Assembly (NCBI RefSeq): GCF_003334305.1
Contig: NZ_QOWS01000016.1
DNA from: Escherichia coli
GTDB taxonomy: Bacteria; Pseudomonadota; Gammaproteobacteria; Enterobacterales; Enterobacteriaceae
DNA length: 64,000 nt
Reading direction: 5' to 3' (one strand)
Shown: in pieces, positions 2,248 to 29,063 of the stretch
Numbering within the stretch: position 1 is the first letter of the stretch
Layout: every line of letters begins with the position of its first letter
The notes under the pieces: generated by a model
The model's input: only the letters and a program-made list of their open reading frames with translations
What the model was told of the DNA's origin: nothing
The model's database searches: none
Made by a program: the position numbers and the translations under genes

Positions 2248-2331
2248 GTGGAGTAGATTGGTCAGGCAAATAAGCTCTTGTCAGCGGCAGGGCGTTCTGC
2301 CGATAACCGTAATCGAAGATGATAACTGACA

Positions 2332-2652
2332 ATGGGTAAAACGAACGACTGGCTGGACTTTGATCAACTGGCGGAAGAAAAAGTTCGCGACGCGCTAAAA
2401 CCGCCATCTATGTATAAAGTGATATTAGTCAATGATGATTACACTCCGATGGAGTTTGTTATTGACGTGTTACAAAAATTCTTTTCTTATGATGTAGAAC
2501 GTGCAACGCAATTGATGCTCGCTGTTCACTACCAGGGGAAGGCCATTTGCGGAGTCTTTACCGCCGAGGTTGCAGAAACCAAAGTGGCGATGGTGAACAA
2601 GTACGCGAGGGAGAATGAGCATCCATTGCTGTGTACGCTAGAAAAAGCCTGA
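2332..2652 (+). CDS. clpS: clpS, ClpA adaptor for N-degron substrates (106 aa)
   Basis: ORF 2332..2652; protein [43 protein letters not shown] is recognisable as ClpS. Confidence 0.95.
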
Positions 2653-2682
2653 ATGCAGGCATAAAAATTGGGGGAGGTGCCT

Positions 2683-4959
2683 ATGCTCAATCAAGAACTG
2701 GAACTCAGTTTAAATATGGCTTTCGCCAGAGCGCGCGAGCACCGTCATGAGTTTATGACCGTCGAGCACTTGTTACTGGCGCTGCTCAGTAACCCATCTG
2801 CCCGGGAGGCGCTGGAAGCGTGTTCTGTGGATTTGGTTGCGCTCCGTCAGGAACTGGAAGCCTTTATTGAACAAACCACACCCGTTCTGCCTGCCAGTGA
2901 AGAGGAGCGCGACACACAGCCGACGCTGAGTTTTCAGCGTGTACTGCAACGTGCGGTCTTCCATGTCCAATCCTCCGGTCGCAATGAGGTAACCGGTGCA
3001 AACGTTCTGGTCGCTATCTTTAGCGAACAGGAGTCGCAGGCGGCATATCTGTTGCGTAAACATGAAGTCAGCCGTCTCGATGTGGTGAACTTTATCTCTC
3101 ATGGCACGCGTAAAGACGAGCCGACACAGTCTTCTGATCCTGGCAGCCAGCCAAACAGCGAAGAACTAGCTGGTGGGGAGGAACGTATGGAGAATTTCAC
3201 GACGAACCTGAATCAGCTTGCGCGCGTGGGCGGAATCGACCCACTGATTGGTCGTGAGAAGGAGCTGGAGCGTGCTATTCAGGTTCTCTGCCGTCGCCGT
3301 AAAAACAACCCGCTGCTGGTGGGGGAATCTGGTGTCGGTAAAACCGCGATTGCGGAAGGTCTTGCCTGGCGAATTGTTCAGGGCGATGTGCCGGAAGTGA
3401 TGGCTGACTGTACGATTTACTCTCTCGATATCGGTTCTCTGTTAGCGGGCACTAAATATCGCGGCGACTTTGAAAAACGTTTTAAAGCGTTGCTCAAGCA
3501 ACTGGAGCAGGACACTAACAGCATCCTGTTTATTGATGAGATCCACACCATTATCGGTGCGGGGGCAGCGTCTGGTGGCCAGGTCGATGCGGCTAACCTG
3601 ATCAAACCGTTGCTCTCCAGCGGTAAAATTCGCGTAATTGGTTCGACAACCTATCAGGAGTTCAGCAACATTTTCGAGAAAGACCGTGCTCTGGCGCGTC
3701 GCTTCCAGAAAATTGATATTACTGAACCGTCGATCGAAGAAACTGTTCAAATCATCAATGGCCTGAAACCGAAGTATGAAGCGCACCACGACGTGCGTTA
3801 TACCGCAAAAGCGGTGCGTGCAGCGGTAGAGCTGGCGGTGAAATACATTAACGATCGTCATCTGCCGGATAAAGCCATTGACGTTATCGACGAAGCGGGC
3901 GCTCGCGCACGCCTGATGCCGGTAAGCAAACGCAAGAAAACCGTTAATGTGGCGGATATTGAGTCCGTGGTGGCCCGTATTGCGCGCATTCCAGAGAAGA
4001 GTGTTTCTCAGAGTGACCGCGATACCCTGAAAAACCTCGGCGATCGCCTGAAAATGCTGGTCTTCGGTCAGGATAAAGCCATTGAGGCGCTGACTGAAGC
4101 CATTAAGATGGCGCGTGCAGGTTTAGGTCACGAACATAAACCGGTTGGTTCGTTCCTGTTTGCCGGCCCTACCGGGGTCGGGAAAACAGAGGTGACGGTA
4201 CAGCTTTCGAAAGCGTTGGGCATTGAGCTGCTGCGCTTTGATATGTCCGAGTATATGGAACGCCATACCGTCAGCCGTCTGATTGGTGCGCCTCCGGGAT
4301 ACGTTGGTTTTGATCAGGGAGGTTTGCTGACTGATGCGGTCATCAAGCATCCACATGCGGTGCTGTTGCTGGACGAAATCGAGAAAGCGCATCCGGACGT
4401 GTTCAATATTCTGTTGCAGGTGATGGACAACGGTACGCTGACCGATAACAACGGACGCAAAGCGGACTTCCGTAACGTGGTGCTGGTGATGACCACCAAC
4501 GCCGGGGTACGTGAAACTGAGCGTAAATCCATTGGTCTTATCCACCAGGATAACAGCACCGATGCGATGGAGGAGATCAAGAAGATCTTTACACCGGAAT
4601 TCCGTAACCGTCTCGACAACATTATCTGGTTTGATCATCTGTCAACCGACGTGATCCATCAGGTGGTGGATAAATTCATCGTCGAGTTGCAGGTTCAGCT
4701 GGATCAGAAAGGTGTTTCTCTGGAAGTGAGCCAGGAAGCGCGTAACTGGCTGGCCGAGAAAGGTTACGACCGGGCAATGGGCGCACGTCCGATGGCGCGT
4801 GTCATCCAGGACAACCTGAAAAAACCGCTCGCCAACGAACTGCTGTTTGGTTCGCTGGTGGACGGCGGTCAGGTCACCGTCGCGCTGGATAAAGAGAAAA
4901 ATGAGCTGACTTACGGATTCCAGAGTGCACAAAAGCACAAGGCGGAAGCAGCGCATTAA
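2683..4959 (+). CDS. clpA: clpA, ATP-dependent Clp protease ATP-binding subunit (758 aa)
   Basis: ORF track 2668..4959; start trimmed to ATG 2683 ([10 protein letters not shown]) preceded by GGGGAGG SD; two AAA+ modules with Walker A GESGVGKT and GPTGVGKT. Confidence 0.96.
3176..3189 (+). promoter_or_regulatory. Internal ribosome-binding site plus in-frame ATG (Met169) inside clpA, consistent with internal initiation giving the shorter ClpA form
   Basis: GGAGG at 3176-3180 followed 6 nt later by in-frame ATG at 3187-3189 (…[11 protein letters not shown]…). Confidence 0.5.
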
Positions 4960-4984
4960 TCTGATTGTTAGGTAGGTTGGTCAA

Positions 4985-5020
4985 GTCCGTAATCTCGAAA
5001 GAGGTTACGGACTTTTTGTT
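4985..5020 (+). terminator. Rho-independent terminator downstream of clpA
   Basis: GTCCGTAATCTC-GAAA-GAGGTTACGGAC hairpin followed by TTTTTGTT. Confidence 0.75.
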
Positions 5021-23525: not shown

Positions 23526-24389
23526 ATGGGAAGTGGATGGCATGAATGGCCGCTGATGATCTTCACGGTCTTCGGGCAATGTGTAGCGGGTGGTTTTATC
23601 GTTCTGGCTTTGGCGCTGCTCAAAGGCGACCTGCGAGCAGAAGCCCAGCAGCGTGTTATCGCCTGCATGTTTGGCTTATGGGTGCTGATGGGCATTGGCT
23701 TTATCGCCTCTATGCTCCATCTTGGTTCACCGATGCGCGCCTTTAACTCGCTCAACCGGGTAGGGGCTTCAGCACTCAGTAACGAAATCGCCAGCGGTTC
23801 GATCTTTTTTGCTGTAGGCGGCATCGGCTGGTTGCTGGCAATGCTGAAAAAGCTGTCACCGGCATTGCGTACGCTATGGCTGGTGGTGACGATGGTTCTT
23901 GGCGTCGTCTTTGTCTGGATGATGGTGCGTGTGTATAACAGCATTGATACCGTTCCGACCTGGTACAGCATCTGGACGCCGATGGGCTTCTTCCTGACGA
24001 TGTTCATGGGCGGCCCGTTACTGGGTTACCTGTTGCTGAGTCTGGCTGGCGTCGATGGCTGGGCGATGCGTCTGCTGCCAGCCATTTCTGTACTGGCACT
24101 GGTGGTGAGTGGTGTGATGTCAGTGATGCAGGGCACAGAGCTGGCAACTATTCATAGTTCTGTGCAGCAGGCCGCAGCGCTGGTGCCGGACTATGGTGCG
24201 CTGATGTCCTGGCGGATCGTGCTTTTGGCCGTTGCCCTGTGCTTGTGGATTGCACCACAGCTAAAAGGTTATCAGCCTGCGGTTCCGCTACTATCCGTCT
24301 CATTCATTCTGCTTCTGGCAGGGGAATTAATCGGTCGCGGCGTATTCTATGGTTTGCATATGACCGTGGGGATGGCCGTCGCAAGCTAA
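23526..24389 (+). CDS. dmsC: dmsC, DMSO reductase membrane anchor subunit (287 aa)
   Basis: ORF track 23463..24389 trimmed to ATG 23526 (MGSGWHEWPLMIFTVFGQ), 2 nt after dmsB stop; polytopic hydrophobic protein. Confidence 0.93.
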   Translation: MGSGWHEWPLMIFTVFGQCVAGGFIVLALALLKGDLRAEAQQRVIACMFGLWVLMGIGFIASMLHLGSPMRAFNSLNRVGASALSNEIASGSIFFAVGGIGWLLAMLKKLSPALRTLWLVVTMVLGVVFVWMMVRVYNSIDTVPTWYSIWTPMGFFLTMFMGGPLLGYLLLSLAGVDGWAMRLLPAISVLALVVSGVMSVMQGTELATIHSSVQQAAALVPDYGALMSWRIVLLAVALCLWIAPQLKGYQPAVPLLSVSFILLLAGELIGRGVFYGLHMTVGMAVAS

Positions 24390-28154: not shown

Positions 28155-29063
28155 TTATTGTGGTCGGTGACGCTGACTCTGGCAGATCTGACCCGTTTTT
28201 ACATAATCGAGAAATGCGCGCAAGCCGCAGGACATATACTGGCGGTTTGGATAATAGATCTGGAAGCCTGGACGCTCTGTGCTCCAGTCTTCCAGTACAC
28301 ATTCTAAACGACCAGTATCAAGGTACTCCTTGATCTGTTCATAGAGCAGATACCCGATACCAGCACCCATCAAAACGGCCTCCAGTTCAGCATCAACATC
28401 ATCCAGAATGATATTTCCTGCGACAGCAATTTCCAGCTCCTTTGCAAATTGCCAGTGGAAAGGTTTGCCGCTGGGATAACGAAAAACAACACATTGATGA
28501 TTAAGCAGATCATGAGGATGGCGGGGTTTGCCATATCTTGCAAAGTACTCTGGCGTTGCTGCTACACATAATTTCACTGGCGGGCCGATCGCCACGCTGA
28601 TCATATCTTTTTCGACGATGCCACTAAGTCGAACGCCAGCGTCAAAGCCCTGTTGGACGATATCGACAAGAGAATCGTCAGTTGTGAGCTCGACTTTAAT
28701 ATCAGGATATTCACGTGTGAAACCAACCAGTAAAGGCATTAAAAATATACGTGCAGCTACCCGGGCGGCATTGATTTTGAGCGTTCCTGTCGGTGTCAGA
28801 CGAAAATCATTCATCTCATCTAACATGATCTGAATTTCGTCGAAAGCTGGGCGCAATCGTTCATAGAGATTAGAACCCGCTTCCGTTAACGATACGCTTC
28901 GGGTTGTCCGATTGAATAAGCGAATTTTAAGACGTTGTTCCAGTGTTTTAATACTATGGCTAATGGCGGACGAGGATAAGCCTAATTCATCGCCCGCTGC
29001 ACGAAAGCTTTGATTACGGGCCACGGCAAAGAAAGTGGCAAAGTCAGACATATTCATCCGCAT
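28155..29063 (-). CDS. ycaN: ycaN, LysR-family transcriptional regulator (302 aa)
   Basis: N-terminal HTH (FRAAGDELGLSSSAISHSIKTLEQRL) plus LysR substrate-binding domain. Confidence 0.9.
   Translation of the reverse strand: MRMNMSDFATFFAVARNQSFRAAGDELGLSSSAISHSIKTLEQRLKIRLFNRTTRSVSLTEAGSNLYERLRPAFDEIQIMLDEMNDFRLTPTGTLKINAARVAARIFLMPLLVGFTREYPDIKVELTTDDSLVDIVQQGFDAGVRLSGIVEKDMISVAIGPPVKLCVAATPEYFARYGKPRHPHDLLNHQCVVFRYPSGKPFHWQFAKELEIAVAGNIILDDVDAELEAVLMGAGIGYLLYEQIKEYLDTGRLECVLEDWSTERPGFQIYYPNRQYMSCGLRAFLDYVKTGQICQSQRHRPQ

Follow-up and report, generated by a model that had tools for sequence, protein, structure and literature searches.

In the 64,000-nucleotide stretch of Escherichia coli DNA analysed here (the window), the gene clpA contains an in-frame ATG at codon 169 that is preceded by a strong Shine–Dalgarno (SD) sequence. 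This is almost certainly AUG169, the internal translation start already documented for E. coli clpA and used in parallel to the main start. The Met169 start and the short ClpA produced from it have been known since 1994 and are not new; published work on E. coli K-12 has demonstrated initiation at codon 169, and recent N-terminomics and Ribo-RET data confirmed the start. The site therefore carries little weight as a discovery, being familiar to ClpA biochemists and routinely mutated away in expression constructs. The modest addition made here is comparative: the start codon appears limited to part of the Enterobacterales, and the SD in front of it appears to be held at synonymous sites. The sequence anatomy, the position of the start relative to the protein domains, the product size and the conservation, synonymous sites included, were observed directly and are described below.

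Window bases 2300–5000 are 100% identical to E. coli strain A7 (NZ_CP028767), in which both clpS and clpA are annotated at the matching segment, and the same annotation shows the wider window, which runs from macB to gloC, to be unremarkable core genome of E. coli. Matches to the clpS–clpA segment were found in 5425 of 5426 E. coli genomes. Five of the 5428 matching places in this genome collection sit on plasmid-labelled records, and at least one genome holds two copies; mislabelled replicons or true duplications could account for this. The product of the window gene matches ClpA chains in the PDB over its full length and is made up of the Pfam domains Clp_N (residues 13–62), AAA (211–343), AAA_lid_9 (350–452), AAA_2 (486–647) and ClpB_D2-small (653–733), with a second Clp_N repeat that scores below the Pfam threshold. 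The strain A7 annotation, the PDB match and the Pfam domains uphold the identification of the gene as clpA, which had been made in an earlier note on this DNA. The adaptor ClpS and some substrates dock on the N-domain of ClpA, the domain that is absent from the short form. The linker at residues 144–168 is rich in Gly, Glu, Ser and Pro and is likely to be disordered. Two database proteins, P0004 (868 aa) and P0001 (898 aa), exceed ClpA in length. P0004 carries a ClpS Pfam domain together with the ClpA domains, is 100% identical to the query across ClpA, and is either a clpS–clpA read-through or a gene-calling artefact of metagenome assembly.

The features of the two starts are listed in Table 1. 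Counting codons from the main start, (3187−2683)/3 + 1 = 169, places the internal ATG in frame at codon 169 of clpA, exactly as the earlier note had it. The SD core had been set one base too far to the left in that note: positions 3176–3180 read GGGAG, and GGAGG occupies 3177–3181, with a spacer of 5 nt rather than the 6 nt claimed. The internal SD is encoded by the codons of Gly164 (GGT), Gly165 (GGG) and Glu166 (GAG). When paired with the 3′ end of 16S rRNA, ACCUCCUUA, it has a predicted duplex energy of −11.4 kcal/mol, compared with −12.6 kcal/mol for the annotated clpA start. With an SD of this strength 5 nt in front of an in-frame ATG, the signals for the short form are indeed retained in this sequence. 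In Pfam coordinates, Met169 falls between Clp_N and the first AAA+ module, which agrees with the earlier placement of the ATG in the linker past the N-domain. The clpA site thus has a functional SD spacing, an in-frame AUG at codon 169 and an N-domain-less product of about 65 kDa, and the computed mass of 65.4 kDa agrees with the published 65-kDa ClpA (Seol 1994, 1995).

Table 1. Positions in the window of clpS, clpA and the elements of the two clpA translation starts.
Feature	Position	Strand	Description or source
clpS	2332–2652	+	Strain A7 annotation and ORF list
SD of the main clpA start, GGAGG	2673–2677	+	Duplex −12.6 kcal/mol
Full-length clpA CDS, including stop	2683–4959	+	758 aa, 84.2 kDa; ATG at 2683
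Codons 1–168, missing in the short form	2683–3186	+	N-domain and Gly/Glu-rich linker, 18.8 kDa
Internal SD, UGGGGAGG	3174–3181	+	8 bp with the 16S 3′ end, two of them G–U
Spacer AACGT, SD core to start codon	3182–3186	+	5 nt; read from the sequence
Internal in-frame start codon ATG, Met169	3187–3189	+	Frame 0 relative to 2683
CDS of the short form (ClpA65)	3187–4959	+	590 aa, 65.4 kDa; both AAA+ modules, no N-domain

Later papers credit Seol et al. (1994, J Biol Chem 269:29468; 1995, FEBS Lett 377:41) with a 65-kDa ClpA made from AUG169; the literature on two forms of ClpA to which the earlier note had referred thus exists, and it concerns codon 169. By the titles of the two Seol papers and a summary in PMC13245402, short ClpA is reported to inhibit the ClpAP protease and to shield ClpA, which is known to degrade itself, from autodegradation. 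A 2026 E. coli N-terminomics paper (TRAINSPOTTER) sums this up as the action of a decoy. The TRAINSPOTTER method, which selects formylated, initiation-derived N-termini, backs the short form with a peptide at AUG169; in the supplement of the paper, b0882 clpA is entered under ‘Ribo-RET’ with an alternative ATG start, a peptide spanning residues 169–181 and a product of 590 aa. Checks of initiation of the kind that the earlier note had proposed are thus already published for E. coli K-12, with a positive outcome (TRAINSPOTTER, Ribo-RET). The residue-169 peptide encoded by the window clpA is identical to that in the K-12 table, and strain A7 would be expected to initiate at AUG169 as K-12 does. 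In current ClpA biochemistry papers, the substitution M169T is introduced ‘to help overexpression’, with Seol 1994 cited. Structures in the PDB reflect this handling of the residue, which is native Met in 6w1z, M169L in 1ksf and 1r6b, and M169T in the 7uiv series, and entries 6uqe and 6uqo contain a chain of 578 residues, the first of which is Met169, with no N-domain.

The strength of the internal SD was compared with that of other sites in the window. Pairs of the form GGAGG-N(4–9)-ATG are not over-represented, with 12 found on both strands of the window against 9.55 ± 3.04 in shuffled sequences, and 7 of the 12 are annotated starts (clpA, cydC, dmsC, ycaK, ihfB, ycaI and ycaR). Motif enrichment was dropped as an argument for the Met169 site, the count lying within chance. 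A crude ORF caller assigned 441 in-frame ATGs to the interior of long ORFs, and by SD strength Met169 comes second among them; the first, at position 23526, is the annotated start of dmsC, so Met169 has the strongest SD among the 440 true internal in-frame ATGs of the 64 kb. Another in-frame GGAGG and ATG on the sense strand of a gene lies at codon 232 of ycaN, which encodes a LysR-type regulator (window 28368–28383, minus strand), with an SD energy of −9.3 kcal/mol and a putative product of about 71 aa.

Predicted mRNA structure supports neither side of the question of an internal start. Met169 is not predicted to be unusually open, its opening energy of 13.3 kcal/mol standing at the 78th percentile of clpA positions, compared with 6.6 kcal/mol at the main clpA start, and the 121-nt local fold around it is no more stable than shuffled sequences (z = −0.21). 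Structure was given little weight, because elongating ribosomes unfold the message within a translated frame anyway.

A rival explanation is that SD and ATG together are a tolerated by-product of a Gly/Glu-rich linker, in which Met conservatively replaces the ancestral Leu169 and from which some initiation is possible with no selected role. A Gly-Gly-Glu-Glu peptide is SD-prone by nature. When all synonymous encodings of LAGGEER were weighted by approximate E. coli codon usage, their mean SD energy was −7.5 kcal/mol and 15% of them contained GGAGG; the encoding observed (−11.4 kcal/mol) belongs to the top 3.7% for SD strength. The chance-level count of the motif in the window is likewise in keeping with this explanation.

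The distribution of Met169 among species also bears on it. A scan of one genome per species yielded 80 ClpA loci (L001–L080) from Gamma- and Betaproteobacteria, in which the column aligned to codon 169 is Met in 6, Leu in 68, Ile in 5 and Thr in 1. The six Met loci are from Citrobacter, two Enterobacter, Superficieibacter, Yersinia and Acerihabitans, and all have a strong SD (−9.8 to −11.0 kcal/mol). The 74 others have a median SD energy of −3.4 kcal/mol, with just 2 reaching −9.8, and Leu occupies the column in Photorhabdus and in the Vibrionaceae. The internal start is thus not kept across the phylogenetic range of ClpA: most of these proteins are without Met169, and the loci without it are mostly without the SD. 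Strong SD-like runs are found in some linkers that have no Met169 (−12.6 kcal/mol in L062 and −10.8 in L044), as a by-product of linker composition would predict. In this sample of 80 further ClpA loci, Met169 occurs in some of the Enterobacterales and nowhere else, and its association with a strong SD comes from a single clade and is phylogenetically confounded. The ancestral residue at 169 is apparently Leu, whose codons CTG and TTG each differ from ATG by one base. The M169L substitution made by crystallographers (1ksf) brings back the residue found in most ClpA proteins.

Within E. coli, the site is close to invariant. Of 5423 complete genomes, 5420 match the 42 nt at 3169–3210 with 99% identity or more; the whole clpS–clpA segment is 95–99% identical in 3899 of 5425 genomes. 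The window carries one private-looking change near the site: codon 162 of clpA (3166–3168) is CTA (Leu), owing to an A to T change at 3167, 20 nt upstream of the ATG. This codon is Gln, CAA or CAG, in E. coli ClpA from the PDB and in all 11 other enterobacterial species compared, and a 42-nt query with the change at its centre hit strain A7 alone among 5426 E. coli genomes, so that Q162L appears private to strain A7. The change leaves the SD untouched, with its energy still at −11.4 kcal/mol; the predicted opening energy is 13.3 kcal/mol for the Q162L allele and 15.3 for the common one, a drop of 2 kcal/mol that is too small for interpretation.

Evidence that separates a selected start from a by-product of the linker comes from synonymous sites. 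A codon alignment of 12 species was built, to which Salmonella, E. albertii, E. fergusonii, Trabulsiella and Enterobacter kobei had been added. These five were chosen through a protein database search, in which the best 120 matches listed were all at least 96% identical, so that the search left the range of lineages no broader. Across the alignment, 27–51% of the codons for the same amino acid differ from those of E. coli, and a single codon is retained in just 8.9% of the 618 invariant, degenerate columns. Gly165 is the rare codon GGG in 12 of the 12 species and is the sole single-codon column among the 46 invariant Gly columns, the other 45 of which vary, although the species are related and such codon counts are not independent events. 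Glu166 is GAG in 11 of the 12. The flanking codons are free to change: Gly164 is GGT, GGC or GGA, residue 167 is GAA, GAG, GAC or GAT, and Arg168 is CGT or CGG. Yersinia aldovae, the sole species with GAA at codon 166, is also the sole species with GGA at codon 164, and this second difference re-forms GGAGG 3 nt closer to the 5′ end, so that the internal SD appears to have shifted in compensation. Such a codon pattern is as would be expected from selection on the SD and not on the protein. This clear signature of synonymous-site selection at the SD speaks for a short form that is physiologically meaningful rather than translational noise. The fixed GGG at codon 165, the seemingly compensatory change in Yersinia, the near-invariance of the site in E. 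coli and the published biochemical effects of the 65-kDa form, as cited in later papers, all argue against a mere by-product of the linker, which we consider very improbable.

Slightly less probable still is that the internal SD chiefly slows ribosomes at a domain boundary, favouring co-translational folding of the N-domain, and that the ATG is incidental. The SD is placed exactly at the boundary between the N-domain and D1, as such a role would have it. SD-like sequences within genes were reportedly proposed to pause ribosomes by Li, Oh and Weissman in 2012, and this pausing hypothesis is said to have been disputed by Mohammad et al. in 2016. The N-domain/D1 boundary is common to the 74 loci that have Leu, Ile or Thr, yet their median SD energy is weak (−3.4 kcal/mol), and initiation at AUG169 has been seen directly as an initiator-Met peptide (TRAINSPOTTER). 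Pausing and initiation can coexist at one site. That the 65-kDa ClpA results from proteolytic clipping of a flexible linker, an origin suggested by the likely disorder of residues 144–168 and by the known autodegradation of ClpA, is already largely refuted and retains a negligible probability, given that a peptide starting at Met169 was found among the formylated, initiation-derived N-termini picked by TRAINSPOTTER, that the same table gives Ribo-RET support, and that replacement of Met169 is the standard route to homogeneous full-length ClpA.

Internal initiation at AUG169 therefore stands as the preferred reading, and its course can be outlined as follows. The 30S subunit would bind the SD UGGGGAGG (3174–3181) within the clpA message, and initiation would take place 5 nt past it, at AUG169 (3187), in parallel to initiation at the main start (2683). 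Two proteins would be made from one frame, ClpA of 758 aa and 84 kDa and a short form of 590 aa and 65 kDa, the latter with both AAA+ rings and without the N-domain that binds ClpS and some substrates. The short form would presumably mix into ClpA hexamers with full-length subunits. For annotation, clpA merits a second product of 590 aa.

How the start came about is a question on which we lean, with some reserve, towards one history. Short ClpA would be a clade-specific, selected isoform that arose when Leu was replaced by Met in an ancestor of Enterobacteriaceae, Yersinia and Acerihabitans, after which the SD came under purifying selection at synonymous sites; Photorhabdus, Vibrio and most other Proteobacteria would make the full-length protein only. 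If this is true, the start arose by a single-base change, from CTG or TTG to ATG. No paper on the clade distribution of Met169 was found in a limited literature search.

The closest known system is the pair of clpA starts in E. coli K-12, with which the window clpA shares gene, codon, SD and product size; the sole difference from K-12 clpA is Gln162Leu in the window strain. Long and short forms are also known for ClpB, as ClpB95 and ClpB80 in E. coli and as a pair in Mycobacterium tuberculosis, and ClpB is, like ClpA, a double-ring AAA+ ATPase of the Hsp100/Clp family. ClpB and ClpA each have an isoform that lacks the N-domain, translated from an internal in-frame start where the N-domain meets D1. 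The internal start of E. coli ClpB is a GTG (Val149) and is widespread. ClpB is a different paralogue, and the internal start of ClpA is an ATG that is confined, in the present sample, to part of the Enterobacterales. For M. tuberculosis, full-length and N-terminally truncated ClpB isoforms are described in the abstract of PMC6168691. A more distant parallel is offered by infB, which yields IF2 alpha, beta and gamma, and by other in-frame genes within genes, in which nested proteins are made, as in clpA, through SD-driven internal initiation. IF2 is unrelated to ClpA, and its isoforms differ by an N-terminal extension and not by an adaptor-binding domain; infB and clpA are named together among known proteoform pairs in the 2026 N-terminomics paper.
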